Below, in pieces: positions 5,051-57,223 of a DNA stretch of 64,000 bases. This stretch comes from Xanthobacter sp. VTT E-85242. GTDB taxonomy: Bacteria > Pseudomonadota > Alphaproteobacteria > Rhizobiales > Xanthobacteraceae. The stretch lies in the NCBI RefSeq assembly GCF_043195095.1, contig NZ_JBAFWN010000001.1, one strand, 5' to 3'. Position 1 is the first letter of the stretch; the number at the start of each line of letters is the position of its first letter. The notes below the pieces were generated by a model that did no database searches, was not told where the DNA came from, and was given only the letters and a program-made list of their open reading frames with translations. The translations under genes and the position numbers were made by a program.

Positions 5051-6922
5051 TCAGGAGAGCTGCGGCAAGGCAAAGTGTTCGCGAAGCAGGCCGAAGGTGA
5101 GAACGACCATCAGAAAGTCATCCTCGAAGGTCTGGTTCAGCTCGGTCTTCGGATCGAGGTATCGGGTTTTGAGATGGGCGATGGCCGCGGGGTTGAAATA
5201 GCCGTCGGCGCGGATGCGCTCCTCGTCCAGCAGGTCGAGCACCTGTGGTTCGCGCGCGCGCAGCAGGCGGGCGCTGGAATGGGCGACGAAGGAGAATTTC
5301 TTGCGGTCCACGATCTGCGCCGGCAGATAGCGCCGCGCCACCTGCTTGAGAACGAATTTCTCCTCCCCGCCGCGCACCATCAGAGCGGGTGGAATGCGCC
5401 GCGCCACGTCGATGACGCCGAGGTCGAGGAAGGGATAGCGCGCCTCCACCGAATTGGCGAAGCTCACCCGGTCGCCATGGTCGGCGAGCAGATGGTCCGC
5501 CATGCGCAGCTTGAAATCGAGATAGGAGCGGATATGGAAGGGGTGGCGGCCGGCGATCTGGCTGCGGTCCACGACATCGCCGGCGAGGCAATCGAAGCTG
5601 TCGAAGCGCGCCGCCACCGCATCGGCATAAAGGCCCTGGCGGCTCTCGCGGCTGGCGGCGTAATTCTTCTCATAGAAAAAGCCAGGATCGCCCCACAGCC
5701 GCTCGCGCCATTCCGCCTCGATCATCTCGTCGAGGTCGAGGCTGTCCGCCGCAGCGCCGCCGCGTTCCATGTCGAGCCGATAGCCCACATAGCCGCCGAA
5801 CAGCTCGTCCGCGCCCTCCCCGGTGAGCACCACCTTCAGGCCCGCGTCGCGCACCATGCCGGAGAGCAAGAGCGAGCAGACATTATAGGATTCGCGCAAC
5901 GGCGCCTCGGCGCAGCGCACGATGTCGGCCAGCCGCCGCGAGAGGACGGAGGGGTCCACCTCCGCCTCGTGATGCACGGTGCCGAGCCGCTTCGCCATCA
6001 GCCGCTGGGGGCCGCGCTCGTCCATGGCACGGTCGGGGAAGGTGATGGAGAAGGTGTGGCGCGTGGATGAGCCCGCCACATCGGCCACGATGGCGGCGAT
6101 GAGCGAGGAATCCAGTCCGCCGGACAGATAGCCACCCACCGGAACGTCGGCCTGGAGGCGATAGCGCACCGCCTGCCGCAGCGCCGCGTCGAGCTCCTCG
6201 ACGCACTCCTCCAGCCGACGCGGCGCGATGTCCTGCGCGAGGGGATAATCGAGGTCCCAGTATTTCTGGACCTTCAGGGGCTTGTCGGGGTCCGCCACCA
6301 GCACATGGCCGGGCGGCAGGCTCTTCACCTCGGCGAAGATGGTGCGGGGCGAGACGAGGCCGGGAAAGGTGAAGATCTGGTCGAGCGCGGTCAGGTCCAC
6401 CGTGCGGTCCAGGGCGTTGTTCGACAGCAGCGCGCGGATTTCCGAGCCGAACATCAAGAGCCCGTCGCGCTCGGCATAGAAGAGCGGCGCGATGCCCACA
6501 TGATCGCGGCCAAGCACGAGCCGGCGGGTCGTCCGGTCGAACACCGCGAATGCGAACTGGCCGTTGATGCGGCGGGCGAACTCGACTCCATATTCGGCGA
6601 ACAGCGCGGGCACCAATTCGGTGTCGCAGCGGGTGGCGAAGCGGTGGCCCCGGCTCTCCAGGTCGGCGCGCAATTCGGCGTAATTATAGATCTCGCCGTT
6701 GCAGATGCCCACCACGCGCCCCTCGGCCGCGAACATGGGTTGGCGGCCGGCGGCGAGATCGACGATGGAGAGCCGGCGGAAGCCGAGGCTCACCACCTCG
6801 TCGCTGAAAAAGCCCTCATCGTCCGGCCCGCGATGGCGCAGCGTATCCGCCATGCGGACGATGAGATCGTCCGCAACCGTGGGGCCGGGGTGGCGCCTGA
6901 GATATCCGACAATTCCGCACAT
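5051..6922 (-). CDS. asnB: Asparagine synthetase (glutamine-hydrolysing)-type class II amidotransferase, 623 aa
   Basis: N-terminal MCGIVGY (Ntn Cys2 nucleophile of class II glutamine amidotransferases), GPDDEG motif, C-terminal synthetase domain with SGGLDSS PP-loop. Start codon sits 3 nt after the megasynthase stop; its own stop is 12 nt before the next NRPS start. Confidence 0.9.
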   Translation of the reverse strand: MCGIVGYLRRHPGPTVADDLIVRMADTLRHRGPDDEGFFSDEVVSLGFRRLSIVDLAAGRQPMFAAEGRVVGICNGEIYNYAELRADLESRGHRFATRCDTELVPALFAEYGVEFARRINGQFAFAVFDRTTRRLVLGRDHVGIAPLFYAERDGLLMFGSEIRALLSNNALDRTVDLTALDQIFTFPGLVSPRTIFAEVKSLPPGHVLVADPDKPLKVQKYWDLDYPLAQDIAPRRLEECVEELDAALRQAVRYRLQADVPVGGYLSGGLDSSLIAAIVADVAGSSTRHTFSITFPDRAMDERGPQRLMAKRLGTVHHEAEVDPSVLSRRLADIVRCAEAPLRESYNVCSLLLSGMVRDAGLKVVLTGEGADELFGGYVGYRLDMERGGAAADSLDLDEMIEAEWRERLWGDPGFFYEKNYAASRESRQGLYADAVAARFDSFDCLAGDVVDRSQIAGRHPFHIRSYLDFKLRMADHLLADHGDRVSFANSVEARYPFLDLGVIDVARRIPPALMVRGGEEKFVLKQVARRYLPAQIVDRKKFSFVAHSSARLLRAREPQVLDLLDEERIRADGYFNPAAIAHLKTRYLDPKTELNQTFEDDFLMVVLTFGLLREHFALPQLS

Positions 6923-6925
6923 GGC

Positions 6926-21601
<14,676 letters not shown>

Positions 21602-51696: not shown

Positions 51697-52518
51697 ATGA
51701 CGAAAACTACGATTTCAGTTGGTTGCATTGGCGGCAGTGGATCGCGTGTGGTTGCGAGAATACTGAAATCTTGCGGGTATTTCATCGGCGAGGATTTAAA
51801 CGAGGAGATGGACAACCTGTGGTTTACCCTCTTATTCAAGAGGCTGTCAGTCCTGGTAGAAGAGCTTGATAGAATCAAATTCCTGTACGCAAACTTCTAC
51901 CACAGGATGCGCTACGGCGATCTGCCATCCCACGAAATCAAGGATATTCTAGCAAATCTTTCCGTCAGAGATCGGATTGTCCACGATCCGGATTGGCTCG
52001 CCGCACGTATGCGCTCGTTCCTGAATGAGCGCGGAGGCGCCGTTGATAAAATGGCATGGAAGGAACCCAATACGCACATCGTTGTCGATCGGCTCCTGAC
52101 CATCGACCCCGATTTGCGTTACATCCACATCACGCGCAGCGGCCTCGACATGGCGTATAGCGCCAATCTGAACCAACTGCTGCTTTGGGGAGCCACTTTC
52201 CTGGACCGGCCGGTAGTGTTGGGTCCCAGAGACGCCTTATCGTACTGGGTCGCTGTGGAGCAGCGCATGAGGAGGCTTCAGAAGAGCTATCCTGGCCGTA
52301 TATTGATCGTCAGCTACGAGGAGCTTGCCTTCAGGCCGAAGGACGTCGTCGCCGAAATCCTCCACTTCTGCGGGGAAAGCGATATGATACGGGCCGCGGA
52401 TGCCGCCGAAATCGTCATCCCTGCCGGCAGTATAGGGCGGCACAAGTCTCAGGACCTCGGCGCTCTCCTGCAGCAAGATGTCGATTACGCCAAAGCCATA
52501 GCAGCCCGCAGCGTGTGA
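51697..52518 (+). CDS. Sulfotransferase-family protein (putative), in low-GC island
   Basis: P-loop-like 5'-PSB region VGCIGGSGSRVV, 3'-PB-like IHITRSGLDMAYS. Markedly lower GC than flanks. Family assignment by eye only. Confidence 0.5.
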   Translation: MTKTTISVGCIGGSGSRVVARILKSCGYFIGEDLNEEMDNLWFTLLFKRLSVLVEELDRIKFLYANFYHRMRYGDLPSHEIKDILANLSVRDRIVHDPDWLAARMRSFLNERGGAVDKMAWKEPNTHIVVDRLLTIDPDLRYIHITRSGLDMAYSANLNQLLLWGATFLDRPVVLGPRDALSYWVAVEQRMRRLQKSYPGRILIVSYEELAFRPKDVVAEILHFCGESDMIRAADAAEIVIPAGSIGRHKSQDLGALLQQDVDYAKAIAARSV

Positions 52519-52622: not shown

Positions 52623-54593
52623 TCAAGGCGCACTTCCGTTTTCCGGAAATGACAGCCGGTATAGCCGCATATGGTAATGCGGTTGCCATAGCCAATCCGC
52701 AAGCCCCTCGGACCGTATGCTGACGGAGACCGGCCGGGGTGCATCGGGCGCCCCCTTGGGCAGCGCGGCGAAATCGGATGCGCCGCTGACAACCGGCGAG
52801 ATGACGAAGCCCGTCTCCCCCATTCGGTAGATGTAACGATAATCGCGTTCGGCCCCATCAGGAAAACGGTAGGTTATGAATAAGCGCGGAGACTTATAAA
52901 CTAGTCCCCAGATCTGCCCGATGAGGGACGGACGTATTTCGATCTCCGCCCAAATTACCGAACCCGCCTCCCGCGGCAGATCCATTCTTTGTCCAAAACT
53001 CAGCCTGTCCTCGCCCAGTGGCTCCAGACGGAAGCTGCCCGGCGTGGCGCGGCGCTGTAAGATCGTGGCGTCGGACCCATAGGGCGACAGATGCAGGAAT
53101 TGGAGAGGGTGATAAAGGCTCAGCAGCAGAGGCCAGCTATTCCCGTCCTCCAACATGGGAAGTCGGCCGTCAATGGGCTGAACGGAGAAGATGATGTTGC
53201 GAGGATGCTGCGATCCGATCAAATGGTCAGCATCCTTCCGCAGCAATTGTGGCGTATAAGCCGAATAGCTTTGAAGCACCGGGCGCGGCCGCCATTCCAA
53301 TCCAGCGGCAAGCAAGGCCGATTGCGTGAAGGAATAGGCGTCCGTCGGCCCCTTCAGAGCAGGCAATGGAGCCGCGGCCCGGATTTTTTCCAAGCTTTCC
53401 AAGTATTGCGCATCCAGGGTGCCGGGTCGGGCGAGCCGCAGATACAAGCCTTCCCCCGCACGATAGAAAGGGAGCAATATCTCTGCGGCAGGTTTCCAGG
53501 CCATCGTAATCGCCAGCCAGCAGGCAAACGTGACGCCAAGACTGAGCCGTGCCCGGCCGGGCACGGCCAGCATCAGCCCGGCCCAGCAGACCAGGATCGC
53601 CATGCCTGCCGCTGCCGAGGGGTGGCGCCCCCCTTGCCGCACGAACCCCTCCTTGTATGCCAGGAACAGCAGCAGAGCCATGCCCAGCAACAGGATCTTG
53701 CCGGTCATCCCGCCCCCGAGATGACGCAAATGCAGAATGTAAAGAAATGCACAGGCCACGAAGAATATAATAATATGCCAGTATGGCCCCGGGACAGACA
53801 TGGCATCGGAATAGCCGGATATGATGTACCACTCGGAAACAAAATAATCCGGCAAAGCCGAAATCTCCTGGGAACTGACAACCCAGAGCATCGGAATGCT
53901 CGCCATGAAAATGGCGAGACAGGCCAGGGCAAGGCGCCGCTTTCCCGCCCATGTCATCATCATGGTCGAGAAAAGAACCATGCAGAGCGCCGACACGGCG
54001 GAGGTGCCCTTCACCAGCACCAGCATCGCGAGCGCCGGCATCATCAGAGGCAGAACCATTTGCCGCCAATTTTGCGCAGGCATCGTCAGTGAAGAAGCGA
54101 TTCGGTAGGCGAGCAGAAGCGCGAGCAACGGCACCGCCATCAGCTGCGGATCCTTGTCTACCAACGGCAGGAACAGCGCGAACCCCACCGCAGGTCGCCA
54201 TGCGCGCGCGCCCACCACCGCCAGCAGCGCGCAGATGGCCGTCACCGCCAGCAGCACTCCTCCAAAGATCGCCAATCCATCGGTTTCCGGCATATAAAGC
54301 GCGGTGTAGATCGGGGCAAAAGGCCCGAAGGTGAAGGTTAACGGCCGGCCGACGAGACCTTGGCTCGTCGCCGCGTTCATCCCGAGCTGCCATCCGCCTC
54401 CCAGGGTTGCAATCGGAAAGATCGGCGCCAAGGGGACGAATGCGGAAATGCAGCCCCACACTATGGCAAGGACGGCGCAAACCTTTAAAAATCCGTCCAG
54501 CGGACGTGTCTCGTTTTCAACCACAGTGACAATAGCCAATTGATTCTGGAAGGATCGGAAGATATTTCCCGCCCGCAGACTATGCCGCCCCAA
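52623..54593 (-). CDS. Large polytopic integral membrane protein (about 13-14 TM in the N-terminal 380 aa + about 270-aa soluble C-terminal domain), possibly a GT-C-like glycosyl/other transferase
   Basis: Hydrophobicity pattern only. No catalytic motif identified. Confidence 0.45.
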   Translation of the reverse strand: MGRHSLRAGNIFRSFQNQLAIVTVVENETRPLDGFLKVCAVLAIVWGCISAFVPLAPIFPIATLGGGWQLGMNAATSQGLVGRPLTFTFGPFAPIYTALYMPETDGLAIFGGVLLAVTAICALLAVVGARAWRPAVGFALFLPLVDKDPQLMAVPLLALLLAYRIASSLTMPAQNWRQMVLPLMMPALAMLVLVKGTSAVSALCMVLFSTMMMTWAGKRRLALACLAIFMASIPMLWVVSSQEISALPDYFVSEWYIISGYSDAMSVPGPYWHIIIFFVACAFLYILHLRHLGGGMTGKILLLGMALLLFLAYKEGFVRQGGRHPSAAAGMAILVCWAGLMLAVPGRARLSLGVTFACWLAITMAWKPAAEILLPFYRAGEGLYLRLARPGTLDAQYLESLEKIRAAAPLPALKGPTDAYSFTQSALLAAGLEWRPRPVLQSYSAYTPQLLRKDADHLIGSQHPRNIIFSVQPIDGRLPMLEDGNSWPLLLSLYHPLQFLHLSPYGSDATILQRRATPGSFRLEPLGEDRLSFGQRMDLPREAGSVIWAEIEIRPSLIGQIWGLVYKSPRLFITYRFPDGAERDYRYIYRMGETGFVISPVVSGASDFAALPKGAPDAPRPVSVSIRSEGLADWLWQPHYHMRLYRLSFPENGSAP

Positions 54594-54640
54594 GGGTCAG
54601 GTAAACCGGCGGGACCGGGAGGGGCTCAATTCCGCTCTGA

Positions 54641-54697
54641 CGCCCAGCGCTCACTCCCAATGCTTCAGCCTTGAAATCCGCACCAGATTTTCCCGCC
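54641..54697 (-). pseudogene. Truncated fourth copy of the 63-aa DUF2384-like gene (encodes MIDGRENLVRISRLKHWE then stop)
   Basis: Sequence 54600-54769 repeats the 3' part of the array unit; the ORF stops after 18 codons and the expected downstream 122-aa partner is absent. Confidence 0.6.
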
Positions 54698-54769
54698 CAT
54701 CGATCATCGCCCAGGGATAGCCCGCTGCGGCTGCGGCCGTCGCGACAAGGGCGAGCTACCCTGCTCGGC

Positions 54770-55138
54770 CTATGTCGGCTTGAACGTTCCATCGTCGAGG
54801 TTCCTCAATCGCGATCCTGCTTCGTAACACTGCGGCACCCAAAAAGACGCACGGATGTCCTCAAGCAATCGGCGCGCAGCCTTCGGCGCAACGGCAAGGG
54901 TCGCAGTCGCCGCGTTCAGGCGGACCTGCATGTTCGGGTAGTCGTACAGCGCCATCAGCGCACGCCGCTGATCGCCGGGGCGCGTCTTCAACTCGGCTTC
55001 TATTGCCCGTTTTTCTAAAAACGAACGGTTGTATTTACGTATTTCATCGTAATCCAAATTATATTGTAAAATACCAATCTGAACATAATCTTTGACGAGC
55101 TTGTCCGTCGACATTTCACTCAGTTTTGCCTTCTTCAT
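54770..55138 (-). CDS. 122-aa array protein, copy 1 (possible DUF2019-like, HEAT-like C-terminal half)
   Basis: MKKAKLSEMSTDKLVKDYVQIGILQYNLDYDEIRKYNRSFLEKRAIEAELKTRPGDQRRALMALYDYPNMQVRLNAATATLAVAPKAARRLLEDIRAS... Its ATG overlaps the stop of the upstream small gene (ATGA). Confidence 0.75.
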   Translation of the reverse strand: MKKAKLSEMSTDKLVKDYVQIGILQYNLDYDEIRKYNRSFLEKRAIEAELKTRPGDQRRALMALYDYPNMQVRLNAATATLAVAPKAARRLLEDIRASFWVPQCYEAGSRLRNLDDGTFKPT

Positions 55139-55326
55139 GGCTTTAGAACTCCATGATCTATCAGTGCTTTTATACCCACCCGCTTTCGCTCAGGCCTATC
55201 CCTATCCTTCAGGTATTCGCGCGGCGAGACACCTCCATAATCATCATTTCCTTTTTGATACCATGCGCTGATCTCCCAATGCTTCAACCGGGAAATCCGC
55301 ACCAGATTTTCCCGCCCATCGATCAT
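55135..55326 (-). CDS. 63-aa DUF2384-like (Xre/MbcA/ParS antitoxin toxin-binding-domain-like) protein, copy 1
   Basis: MIDGRENLVRISRLKHWEISAWYQKGNDDYGGVSPREYLKDRDRPERKRVGIKALIDHGVLKP. The W...N...GG.SP.E.L......V...L..i.hG pattern matches my recollection of DUF2384. Confidence 0.7.
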   Translation of the reverse strand: MIDGRENLVRISRLKHWEISAWYQKGNDDYGGVSPREYLKDRDRPERKRVGIKALIDHGVLKP

Positions 55327-55388
55327 CGCCCGGGGATAGCCCGCTGCGGCTGCCGCCGTCTCGACAAGGGGGAGCTACCCTGCGCGGG

Positions 55389-55757
55389 CTATGTCGGCTT
55401 GAACGTTCCATCATCGAGACGCCGCAATCCCATTCCGGCTTCGAACGCTTGCGGTTGCCAGCCAGACGCGCGGATATCCTCGAGCAAACGGCGAGCAGCC
55501 TCCGGCGCAACGGCCAGCGTCGCCGTCGCCGCGTTCAGGCGGACCTGCATGTTCGGGTAATCGTACAGCGCCATCAGCGCACGCCGCTGATCACCGGGGC
55601 GCACCTTCAACTCGTCCTCTATTGTCATTCTTTTGAAAAATGAACGTTTATACCGACGAATGTCGTCGTAATCTAATTTATATTCAAAAATTCCGATTTT
55701 AATATAGAAATCAACGAGGTCCTGTGTAGACATTTTGCTCAGATTTTCGTTTTTCAT
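55389..55757 (-). CDS. 122-aa array protein, copy 2
   Basis: MKNENLSKMSTQDLVDFYIKIGIFEYKLDYDDIRRYKRSFFKRMTIEDELKVRPGDQRRALMALYDYPNMQVRLNAATATLAVAPEAARRLLEDIRASGW... Confidence 0.75.
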   Translation of the reverse strand: MKNENLSKMSTQDLVDFYIKIGIFEYKLDYDDIRRYKRSFFKRMTIEDELKVRPGDQRRALMALYDYPNMQVRLNAATATLAVAPEAARRLLEDIRASGWQPQAFEAGMGLRRLDDGTFKPT

Positions 55758-55945
55758 GGCTTCAGAACCCCATGCTCCACAAGAGCTTCTATGCCGACCC
55801 GCTGGCGCTCAGCCCAATCATTATCCTTCAGGTATTCGCGCGGAGAGAGTTGCCCAAAAGCACGATTCGGCCTTTGATACCATGCGCTGATCTCCCAATG
55901 CTTCAACCGGGAAATCCGCACCAGGTTTTCCCGCCCATCGATCAT
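55754..55945 (-). CDS. 63-aa DUF2384-like protein, copy 2
   Basis: MIDGRENLVRISRLKHWEISAWYQRPNRAFGQLSPREYLKDNDWAERQRVGIEALVEHGVLKP. Confidence 0.7.
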   Translation of the reverse strand: MIDGRENLVRISRLKHWEISAWYQRPNRAFGQLSPREYLKDNDWAERQRVGIEALVEHGVLKP

Positions 55946-56007
55946 CGCCCAGGGATAGCCCGCTGCGGCTGCGGCCGTCTCGACAAGGGGGAGCTACCCT
56001 GCGCGGG

Positions 56008-56376
56008 CTATGTCGGCTTGAACGTTCCATCATCGAGTCGCCGCAATCGCATTCCCGCATCGTAAGCTTGTGGTGGCCAGCCGGACGCGCGGATATCCTC
56101 GAGCAATCGGCGCGCCGCCTCAGGCGCAACGGCAAGGGTCGCCGTCGCCGCGTTCAGGCGAACCTGCATGTTCGGGTAGTCGTACAGCGCCATCAGCGCA
56201 CGTCGCTGATCACCGGGGCGCGCCTTCAACTCGCTCTCTATTGCCCGTTTTTGGAAAAAAAAACGATTGTATTTTCCGATTTCATCGGTATCCAATTTAT
56301 ATTGATAAATACCAATTTCAATGTAAACATCTACAAGTTCTTTTATAGATATTTTGCTCAAATCTTGTTTTTTCAT
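56008..56376 (-). CDS. 122-aa array protein, copy 3
   Basis: MKKQDLSKISIKELVDVYIEIGIYQYKLDTDEIGKYNRFFFQKRAIESELKARPGDQRRALMALYDYPNMQVRLNAATATLAVAPEAARRLLEDIRASGW... Confidence 0.75.
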   Translation of the reverse strand: MKKQDLSKISIKELVDVYIEIGIYQYKLDTDEIGKYNRFFFQKRAIESELKARPGDQRRALMALYDYPNMQVRLNAATATLAVAPEAARRLLEDIRASGWPPQAYDAGMRLRRLDDGTFKPT

Positions 56377-56564
56377 GGCTTCAAAACCCCATGCTCCACG
56401 AGAGCCTCTATGCCGACCCGCTGGCGCTCAGCCCAATCCTTGTCCTTCAGGTATTGGCGCGGTGAAAGGCCTTCATAATCATCATTTCTTTTTTGATACC
56501 ATGCGCTGATCTCCCAATGCTTCAACCGGGAAATCCGCACCAGATTTTCCCGCCCATCGATCAT
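56373..56564 (-). CDS. 63-aa DUF2384-like protein, copy 3
   Basis: MIDGRENLVRISRLKHWEISAWYQKRNDDYEGLSPRQYLKDKDWAERQRVGIEALVEHGVLKP. Its ATG (56564..56562) overlaps the TGA (56563..56561) of the upstream 220-aa ORF. The track ORF to 56645 is an out-of-context extension. Confidence 0.7.
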   Translation of the reverse strand: MIDGRENLVRISRLKHWEISAWYQKRNDDYEGLSPRQYLKDKDWAERQRVGIEALVEHGVLKP

Positions 56565-57223
56565 CGCCCGGGGATAGCCCGCTGCGGCTGCGGCCGTCTG
56601 CTCGACAATATGATGCACATCGGTCCCTGCTGCAGGCACATCCACCGCGCCTGGAGTTCGGCCAAGGTCTTCGGCGGCTCCAGATACGCCGTGATGTGAG
56701 GAATAAGGAGATCAGCAATCCAGACTGTCGCCTCCACAGCGGCCGCAAACAGCTTCGCCTGCGGGCTGGGGCCGTAACGCATTGCGCGGAGCAGCCAGCC
56801 GGCCGCGCGCCGCACCACGCGCATGCGGTCCTGCGCGGTGGGCGGCGCCTCGCGTGGAATGGCCGGCGGGTCTTCGAGAGGCGGGCCGCCATTGTGCCCG
56901 ATCTCCGGGGGCCGCGGGGTGATGATGATGCGCGGCGGGTCTCCCTCGCCCCGGGGCGGGAGTTGCGGACCCGCAGGTGGCGGCGTGACGGGCTTGGAGC
57001 CCGACGGGGCTGTTCCGGCGCCACCCGGGCCGGCCCATTGTCCCCCGTGTGGGTTGTTCCTTGGAATGCGCGGCTGGTTCGGGTTGAAACCCGCCTTGCG
57101 GATCGCCTCGCGCAGCCGCAGGAGCTTGACGTGAAAACTTAGATCCACCAGCGCGGCGCGGATGTCCAGAAGCTCCTGAACATCCGGCTCGGACACCGGG
57201 GTGTTGGATTGCCACCGATACAT
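56561..57223 (-). CDS. Hypothetical 220-aa protein: short N-terminal helix region, about 90-aa Pro/Gly-rich linker, about 80-aa C-terminal domain. Translationally coupled to the array
   Basis: MYRWQSNTPVSEPDVQELLDIRAALVDLSFHVKLL...PRIPRNNPHGGQWAGPGGAGTAPSGSKPVTPPPAGPQLPP...GHNGGPPLEDPPAIP...RAAGWLLRAMRYGPSPQAKLFAAAVEATVWIADLLIPHITAYLEPPKTLAELQARWM. The last about 15 codons are encoded by repeat-unit DNA. Confidence 0.5.
   Translation of the reverse strand: MYRWQSNTPVSEPDVQELLDIRAALVDLSFHVKLLRLREAIRKAGFNPNQPRIPRNNPHGGQWAGPGGAGTAPSGSKPVTPPPAGPQLPPRGEGDPPRIIITPRPPEIGHNGGPPLEDPPAIPREAPPTAQDRMRVVRRAAGWLLRAMRYGPSPQAKLFAAAVEATVWIADLLIPHITAYLEPPKTLAELQARWMCLQQGPMCIILSSRRPQPQRAIPGR

Follow-up and report, generated by a model that had tools for sequence, protein, structure and literature searches.

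A probable polymorphic toxin-immunity locus with orphan cassettes on a 619-bp tandem scaffold in Xanthobacter

What is encoded by an array of small, paired open reading frames (ORFs) that recurs head to tail at a fixed interval on the minus strand of contig NZ_JBAFWN010000001.1 from Xanthobacter sp. VTT E-85242? The array lies within a 64,000-nucleotide stretch of this contig, which was analysed as a whole and which we call the window (67.3% GC). The original prediction, made from the DNA letters, described each unit as a 63-aa DUF2384-like gene followed by a 122-aa gene, and left two readings, either a new toxin-antitoxin pair or a diversified array of immunity genes for an upstream 220-aa protein. 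We find that the region is probably a polymorphic toxin-immunity locus with orphan cassettes, in which a lead toxin gene, split in this strain, is followed by its predicted immunity gene and then by truncated toxin tails that each have an immunity gene of their own. The second of the two readings thus came close to the evidence, with the corrections that the 220-aa protein is the N-terminal part of the toxin only and that the immunity genes in the repeats are accompanied by orphan toxin tails.

The three 122-aa ORFs lie on the minus strand at 56008-56376, 55389-55757 and 54770-55138 (genes 1, 2 and 3 in the direction of transcription), spaced exactly 619 bp apart, and an 88-nt repeat family recurs at the same 619-bp interval in four copies, at 54654, 55273, 55892 and 56511. 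Both observations confirm the proposed arrangement of three head-to-tail units with a truncated fourth, and two accompanying claims, that unit length is conserved to the base and that the small and large ORF of each pair overlap in an ATGA start/stop, were also borne out, the period being 619 bp in every unit. Tandem Repeats Finder reported nothing, the longest period that it covers being 500, and repeat finding and alignment were used instead.

The identity of the small ORFs follows from the copy nearest the upstream gene, the third by coordinate and the first to be transcribed. Its frame is open upstream to 56711, where it reads ...VDVPAAGTDVHHIVEQTAAAAAGYPRAMIDGRENLV..., and rather than standing free, as had been assumed, it continues the 220-aa ORF across a 1-nt deletion. 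A homology search with the open-frame stretch returned 51 relatives of 61-190 aa (E down to 1e-40) that run colinearly from '...AAGWLLRA...YLEPPKTLAELQAAV' into '...GTDVHHIVEQ...', the first part of which matches the end of the 220-aa ORF in the window. Homologue P0001 is colinear with the 220-aa ORF and the next frame, and the orthologue in Xanthobacter sp. VNH20 (locus L001) is intact at 283 aa, with residues 1-192 aligning to the 220-aa ORF (68% identity) and residues 187-283 to the next frame. Compared with its closest relative, L012, the window is one G short at 56646-56650 (GCGGCGGTG -> GCG-CGGTG), where tblastn also changes frame after ...AELQA. This colinearity with the intact L001 protein, together with the loss of a single G relative to L012, indicates that the 220-aa ORF and the first 63-aa ORF are one gene split by a single-G deletion. 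A programmed frameshift is unlikely, since GCG CGG TGG is not a slippery sequence; L012, the nearest relative, also retains the extra G, and in further relatives the gene is disrupted at different places.

The whole lead toxin gene extends from 57223 to 56373 (minus strand) and would specify a product of ~283 aa. Its 5' part (codons 1-192, 56648-57223) carries an N-terminal module with FNPNQPRIPRNNPHGGQW, a Gly/Pro-rich linker, the stretch 'PPAIPREAPPT' and the helix 'AAGWLL'; because of the frameshift it is annotated by NCBI as a 220-aa hypothetical protein, to which P0052 is a 100% match. Its 3' part (56373-56645) carries a predicted HNH-like (beta-beta-alpha) nuclease domain, 'DVHHIVEQ...ENLVRIS..KHWEI', and a variable helical tail, and the stop codon overlaps the start of DUF2019 gene 1 in ATGA. 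The first 63-aa gene plus 27 upstream codons is therefore the C-terminal domain of the lead toxin, and the 220-aa ORF its N-terminal two thirds. The two His codons of the HH dyad (CAT CAT, 56610-56615), whose residues H71/H72 are nearly invariant in alignment A2, occur in the lead copy only and are absent from every downstream fragment. In the downstream copies, in-frame homology begins at ...VE-TAAAAAG, directly after the HH codon position, so that the ~33 nt before each small-ORF ATG are an in-frame homologue of the upstream gene (…VE-TAAAAAGYP-A-M…). The 62-bp spacer described between units does exist, with half of it being this coding remnant. The start Met of the 63-aa ORF is internal and is not conserved in the family, and the 63-aa ORFs are 5'-truncated C-terminal fragments of a ~283-aa protein.

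The protein domain that these fragments truncate is ~100 aa long and C-terminal in proteins of 150-570 aa. Across 47 sequences the residues G, D, H, H, I, V and E are nearly invariant, N-L-V-x-I follows ~21 residues on and H-x-x-I-x-x-W a further 8-9 residues on, giving the motif G-[YT]-D-[VI]-H-H-I-V-E...N-L-V-R-I...H-W. A representative library (50% identity) holds 1774 representatives at E <= 0.001, and the domain ends at the final residue in 150/150 among the representatives listed. In AlphaFold2 models, which are confident (pLDDT 88.5; 93 for the trimmed 90 aa), DVHHI and LVRIS lie on two strands and KHWEI... opens a helix, a predicted beta-beta-alpha arrangement as in HNH-type nucleases. 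The best fold matches of the domain are DNases, all of them weak, and Foldseek with the toxin-domain model gave nothing significant; searches of the toxin profile against Pfam, PHROGs, NCBIfam, PADLOC and PDB sequences gave no significant match, and the longer family members (404-572 aa) have no Pfam domain. From the models and the conserved residues, we consider the domain likely to be an HNH-type (beta-beta-alpha-metal) DNase.

The 122-aa proteins are members of DUF2019 (PF09450), with 106-118 bits against a cut-off of 23.3 over profile positions 1-105 of 105 in 3/3 copies (E 1.5e-34, 3e-33 and 1.2e-30 for genes 1, 2 and 3, respectively). They match the structure 2I9C (RPA1889) over its full length (E 9.5e-31; E 1e-30 for gene 1) and weakly resemble designed armadillo-repeat proteins; the searchable literature yielded no function for DUF2019 or RPA1889. 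To place the pair in context, 99 related loci were collected from genomes, metagenomes and IMG/VR. A DUF2019 gene starts no more than 60 nt after the HH-containing domain in 93/97 cases from these loci, most commonly overlapping or abutting it, and the first locus set gave the same toxin-then-DUF2019 linkage in 62/64 loci. Two or more complete DUF2019 genes are present in 38/99 loci. Some have the pattern toxin-immunity-(fragment-immunity)n (L001, L002, L003, L004, L012, L019, L057, L063, L073 and L081) and others have runs of DUF2019 without fragments (L033, L049, L051 and L077). Orphan fragments begin at toxin-profile positions 54-119, the HH being at 63-64, and only two of them begin ahead of the HH. 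In the window, all three DUF2019 frames are intact. As judged from these comparisons, it is the DUF2019 partner that has been preserved whole and multiplied, behaviour expected of an immunity protein and not of a toxin.

With these assignments the array reads as follows. DUF2019 gene 1 is the predicted cognate immunity gene of the lead toxin. Orphan toxin fragment 1 (55754-55981, minus strand) covers toxin-profile positions 68-142 by hmmsearch and in alignment A1; its annotated 63-aa ORF begins at an internal ATG at 55945, with in-frame homology from ...VE-TAAAAAG onwards, and it is followed by DUF2019 gene 2, the predicted immunity gene of orphan cassette 1. Orphan toxin fragment 2 (55135-55362, minus strand; 63-aa ORF from the ATG at 55326), which covers the same profile positions by the same two methods, is followed by DUF2019 gene 3, the predicted immunity gene of orphan cassette 2. 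A terminal remnant (54654-54741, minus strand; repeat family D3, toxin-profile positions 69-97) is the fourth copy of the conserved block, and it stops within '...RLKHWE', where the array ends.

The units are not the perfect copies that had been described, being 81-83% identical overall, and their differences are arranged as a mosaic. The 33 nt 5' of the small-ORF ATG together with the first 24 codons are 97-100% identical in DNA between units (99-100% for codons 1-24), and small-ORF codons 25-63 are 74-81% identical in DNA and 64-77% in protein. Within the 122-aa gene, codons 1-53 (56218-56376, 55599-55757 and 54980-55138 for genes 1, 2 and 3, minus strand) are 71-74% identical in DNA and 57-62% in protein at 31-38% GC, codons 54-98 are 92-93% identical in DNA, codons 99-115 are 61-84% identical, and the last 24 nt of the unit are 100% identical. 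Three variable blocks, namely the toxin tail, immunity codons 1-53 and immunity codons 99-115, are thus separated by near-identical stretches. The AT-rich character of codons 1-53 and their protein identity of about 55-60% had been seen correctly in the original prediction. Its statement that the small genes are nearly identical holds for codons 1-24 and fails for codons 25-63, its statement that codons 54-122 are nearly identical holds for codons 54-98 and the last 24 nt and fails for codons 99-115, and divergence is neither limited to the AT-rich 159 bp, as it proposed, nor spread evenly over the unit. Synonymous differences number 0-1 in the conserved 24 codons of the small ORF against 6-10 in the following 39. 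Their near-absence from the conserved blocks points to recombination or gene conversion, and not solely to protein-level selection, as the process that shaped these blocks.

The AT-rich segment had been taken for a compositionally foreign cassette. Across the family, the DUF2019 N-half has a mean GC of 0.49 against 0.60 for the C-half, and values of 0.31-0.43 (third-position GC 0.23-0.53) are confined to the Xanthobacter/Roseixanthobacter loci and 3/4 Aquabacter genes. Extreme AT-richness of codons 1-53, third positions included, was observed in the window and in L001, L003, L004, L012, L006 and L030. Within this clade the AT-rich N-half is common to alleles of both length classes, which speaks against a single foreign import; a single recent import was rejected, since every allele in the clade has the same composition. 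The foreign origin is thus doubtful, and the distribution argues for AT-richness as a standing property of this segment in Xanthobacter, Roseixanthobacter and Aquabacter, for which AT-biased mutation where gene conversion is escaped, selection on the coupled translation start and silencer binding are all possible causes. Sigma-70-like hexamer pairs occur in the region at 55701-55730 and 56266-56321 (minus strand) only, both within the AT-rich immunity N-halves. They are probably a by-product of AT-rich composition and could be internal promoters for the downstream cassettes; a promoter and terminator scan of the region found matches within AT-rich segments only and is uninformative.

The same site can be followed in relatives. 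The array is flanked by a ybbP-like ABC permease gene and a gene for a 656-aa membrane protein, both of which are common to L001, L003 and L012; L002 and L004 share the upstream flank only. Copy number varies between related strains at this orthologous site, with three DUF2019 genes in the window, four in L001, three in L003 and two in L012, and a trailing remnant also ends the arrays of L003 (profile positions 69-98) and L012 (69-99). The lead toxin is intact in L001 only, and 5/6 Xanthobacter/Roseixanthobacter loci carry independent lesions in it: the 1-nt deletion in the window, a nonsense change of Trp to stop in L012, frameshifts at other, differing positions in L002 and L004, and an N-terminal truncation with loss of the first 165 residues in L003. 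In L002 (Xanthobacter sp. VTT E-85241, 6441-7436) the immunity genes are damaged too, with one frameshift and one in-frame stop, and this locus is decaying as a whole and not just in its toxin. Alleles are shared between strains in parts: DUF2019 gene 3 of the window is 93% identical in its N-half and 99% in its C-half to gene 2 of L012 (L012_i2), the N-half of DUF2019 gene 1 is 90% identical to that of gene 2 of L003, and gene 1 of L012 (L012_i1) is a chimera of an L001-type N-half and an L003-type C-half. The shared alleles and this chimera indicate that DUF2019 modules have been exchanged between alleles at the conserved middle block. Beside the array, the multi-pass 656-aa membrane protein (52623-54593, minus strand) and a 273-aa ORF (51697-52518, plus strand) are conserved in L001, L003 and L012; neither has an NCBIfam match.

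We propose that the DUF2019 protein whose gene overlaps the toxin stop codon is the cognate immunity protein, which would bind and block the toxin. In each of the two orphan cassettes downstream, a toxin fragment that is predicted to be inactive alone, because it is cut off just after the putative catalytic HH, would be held together with its own DUF2019 gene, and the last fragment would mark the end of the array. The recombination handle could be a ~105-nt block (TAAAAAGYPRAMIDGRENLVRISRLKHWEISAWYQ), of which the four copies are near-identical; the conserved block at 56511-56598 in the lead gene, a candidate handle, recurs at 55892-55979, 55273-55360 and 54654-54741 (minus strand), the copies being 94-100% identical with almost no synonymous differences. 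Crossing-over among copies of the handle would expand or contract the array; by the same route, the lead gene could acquire the tail of an orphan cassette along with the immunity gene linked to it. The parts that have diversified are the toxin tail and immunity codons 1-53 and 99-115, and these presumably make up the interface that sets specificity. In this strain the lead gene appears dead through its 1-nt deletion and three immunity genes are intact, so the locus would be at most a defensive immunity repertoire.

The wider family is found in a setting that bears on how the toxin might be used. The toxin-DUF2019 pair is co-oriented within head gene clusters like those of the gene transfer agent (GTA) RcGTA in 30/64 genome loci and 17/28 IMG/VR loci, in the order terminase, portal, (protease), toxin, DUF2019, capsid, head completion, tail completion and tail tube. 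The host clusters are RcGTA-like clusters of Hyphomicrobiales and not prophages. Among the contexts reached through DUF2019 homologues the pair is present in 7/7, with portal and/or capsid genes around it in 6/7, and in L008 the toxin gene comes after a gene with a GTA_TIM domain (RcGTA g15 type). A position between the portal/protease and capsid genes was noted in L010, L011, L020, L034, L050, L051, L056, L059 (Hyphomicrobium zavarzinii), L065-L069, L076, L085, L097 and others. No GTA genes were found in the window, the locus of which lies outside any such cluster.

The conserved N-terminal motif of the toxin, 'NPNQPR-P...GGQW', is shared by full-length relatives; in the toxin a Gly/Pro-rich linker follows it. 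In related loci, other toxin domains too stand behind the N-terminal motif F[DN]PNQPRVPAGNPDGGQW. By Pfam these alternative C-termini include Gln_amidase/Tox-PL1 (PF15644, 32 bits) and a MafB19-like deaminase (PF14437, 27.4 bits). The presence of various toxin domains behind one N-terminal module is a hallmark of polymorphic toxins (PMC3482391). ORFs with the N-terminal 'QPRVPAGNPDGGQW' motif and other toxin C-termini were seen at L015 9725-10726, L058 4463-5494, L056 8030-8863, L008 7185-8015 and L081 3963-4901, and inspection by eye picked out further C-termini that are AHH-like ('GHHFV'), JAMM-like ('HTHP..S..D') or of a CxxC...DHQPP...CxxC type. The HHIVE domain also stands behind a different long pre-toxin region, '...DPRWQPRPSAYESVEGLIR...', in P0195 and P0216 (555-570 aa; representative library); this type of region has no Pfam domain and is common to deaminase (L058) and CxxC (L081, L096) proteins. 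On the IMG/VR contig L096, a single frame of 547 aa (3-1643) carries a Phage_portal domain (60 bits) fused to the QPRVP...GGQW motif and a C-terminus that looks toxin-like, which suggests that toxins of this class are physically linked to the portal.

One extension of the polymorphic-toxin reading, which we regard as doubtful, is that the toxins are cargo of GTA or phage-like particles and are injected with DNA, that the particles would act as kin-discriminating weapons, and that DUF2019 arrays would be resistance repertoires kept after a strain has lost its own toxin. The N-terminal 'NPNQPRVPAGNPDGGQW' module would then target the protein to the portal or the capsid interior, an idea prompted by the usual position of the gene just after the portal/protease gene and by the one portal-toxin fusion. 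A search of the accessible literature turned up no paper that connects such polymorphic toxins to GTAs.

The same gene neighbourhood, with ~half of the family loci co-oriented in RcGTA-like terminase-portal-capsid clusters, is also what would be seen if the pair were an intracellular module that is never exported, namely a GTA- or prophage-linked nuclease with its inhibitor, acting in addiction, abortive infection or particle maturation. HK97-like phages provide a model in the HNH partner of their terminase, and the small size of the toxin and its lack of a known export domain suit such a role. A packaging enzyme, however, would not be swapped for a glutamine deamidase or deaminase behind the same N-terminal motif, as this nuclease-like domain is; orphan fragments, immunity arrays and allele shuffling between strains are marks of conflict among strains; the locus in the window is distant from any GTA gene; and the defence-system library gave no match. 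We therefore judge this alternative improbable. Its narrower version, an HNH packaging enzyme, was rejected on the interchangeability of the domain with a deamidase or deaminase and on the orphan and immunity arrays that accompany it.

The toxin-antitoxin reading of the original prediction would make the locus a type II system, in which a 63-aa DUF2384-like antitoxin lacking a helix-turn-helix (HTH) domain is paired with a new 122-aa DUF2019 toxin and the two are amplified in tandem. Translational coupling through ATGA would fit this, as would the weak resemblance of the last ~40 toxin residues (LSPR-YL...W-ER...G...L), in sequence and in fold, to the C-terminal domain of Xre/MbcA/ParS, a resemblance that accounts for the DUF2384 label given in the original prediction. 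Yet a match to this domain was obtained for one of the three 63-aa copies (E 0.0016, 18.8 bits against a cut-off of 24.5) and for 5/28 family members, every one of them below the Pfam cut-off, and profile searches found no RES, MbcT or ParT partner and no HTH. The 63-aa ORFs are cut-down versions of a longer conserved domain, the HH...N...H core of which is encoded upstream of them, and the homology that extends in frame 33 nt above a non-conserved Met leaves them as 3' pieces of the ~100-aa domain. DUF2019, for its part, stays intact as the upstream gene decays and is also found in series that include no fragment (L033, L049 and L051), as an antidote would, and we regard a toxin-antitoxin pair as very unlikely. 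An assembly artefact or a recent neutral tandem duplication without function would account for the exact period and the head-to-tail copies, but is scarcely credible given units that differ by 17-19% in a structured mosaic, three intact DUF2019 frames with full-length Pfam matches, and the same architecture at the orthologous site of L001, L003 and L012, independent assemblies with other copy numbers and shared alleles.

Several points weigh against the polymorphic-toxin reading itself. Neither a signal peptide nor any recognised secretion or trafficking domain is present in the toxin, Pfam, PHROGs and NCBIfam giving nothing for the N-terminal 190 aa or for full-length relatives, so that its export is unexplained, especially in the window, with no GTA or phage gene nearby. 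The toxin tail is only moderately variable and shows no wholesale replacement of the kind found in CDI/Rhs orphans. The toxin activity of family members is a prediction from their sequences, cassette switching is likewise a proposal, and the frameshift in the lead gene could be a sequencing error in a single assembly, though four relatives carry other lesions.

The assignment gives DUF2019, a family whose structure was solved by structural genomics (2I9C), a testable role as an immunity protein. It also outlines a large predicted toxin family (~1,800 representatives at 50% identity), the domain of which is recognised by none of the profile libraries tried. In the window, three diverged tail/immunity pairs stand on one fixed 619-bp scaffold and form a 3x3 matrix for mapping specificity. 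The occurrence of half of the family in RcGTA-like head clusters, together with an N-terminal module that bears other toxin domains as well, raises the question of whether gene transfer agents deliver protein toxins besides DNA; if they do, the view of their benefit to the producer would change.

Among known systems, polymorphic toxins have the toxin domain at the C-terminus, varied domains behind a shared N-terminus, an immunity gene downstream, orphan cassettes, and a recognised N-terminal domain for trafficking or secretion (Zhang et al. 2012, PMC3482391). In the family described here we find a C-terminal toxin domain, interchangeable domains, an adjacent downstream DUF2019 gene, and orphan cassettes (two plus a remnant in the window, and cassettes in at least ten other loci), whereas the N-terminus matches no known trafficking domain and carries only a conserved motif that is undescribed. 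Orphan toxin/immunity cassettes are a feature of contact-dependent inhibition (CDI; cdiA-CT/cdiI), Rhs and MafB loci. The resemblance to these loci extends to the order of a full-length toxin gene, an immunity gene and then 5'-truncated toxin tails each with its own immunity gene, to fragments that keep a conserved stretch able to recombine with the lead gene, and to copy numbers that differ between strains and immunity genes that outlast the toxin. The window differs from them in that its toxin is only ~283 aa long, with no CdiA, Rhs, MafB, PAAR, LXG or other known delivery domain; in that the cut falls inside the toxin domain just after the HH and not at a pre-toxin motif; and in that the tails are diverged versions of one fold, and not unrelated domains, on a unit fixed at 619 bp.

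Tox-AHH (PF14412) has the signature [AG]HH, N, H, H, Y (Zhang et al. 2012, PMC3482391). Our family resembles Tox-AHH and HNH-EndoVII in its HH dyad on a predicted strand, followed by Asn and then by His at a helix start, in its C-terminal position and in the immunity gene downstream, and 3/28 family members gave weak Pfam AHH matches (best E 0.048), below threshold. It departs from Tox-AHH in its own signature ([VI]HH-I-V-E, then N, a single downstream His and W-Y) and in an extra helical tail that is weakly DUF2384-like. The genes of MuF toxins are located directly downstream of portal genes, and phage heads are the presumed carriers of these toxins (Jamet et al. 2017, PMC5576092, the main text of which contains neither 'GTA' nor 'Alphaproteobacteria'). 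As in that system, the toxin gene in ~half of our loci is in a head module downstream of the portal gene with the immunity gene adjoining, different toxin domains share one N-terminal module, and one protein (L096) is fused to a portal domain. In contrast, no MuF domain (PF04233/PF06152-type) was matched at E <= 1, and our family resides in RcGTA-like clusters and not in prophages, with the window copy outside any such cluster. Compared with DUF2384 (PF09722) proteins, the corresponding segment in the window is the tail of a nuclease-like domain, without an HTH or a RES-type partner, and the DUF2019 protein RPA1889 (2I9C), a structural-genomics protein, here acquires a consistent genomic partner and a predicted role. 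What appears to be undescribed is the toxin domain, its N-terminal module, the part played by DUF2019 and the connection with GTA clusters; the architecture of the array is one already known from CDI, Rhs and Maf systems.

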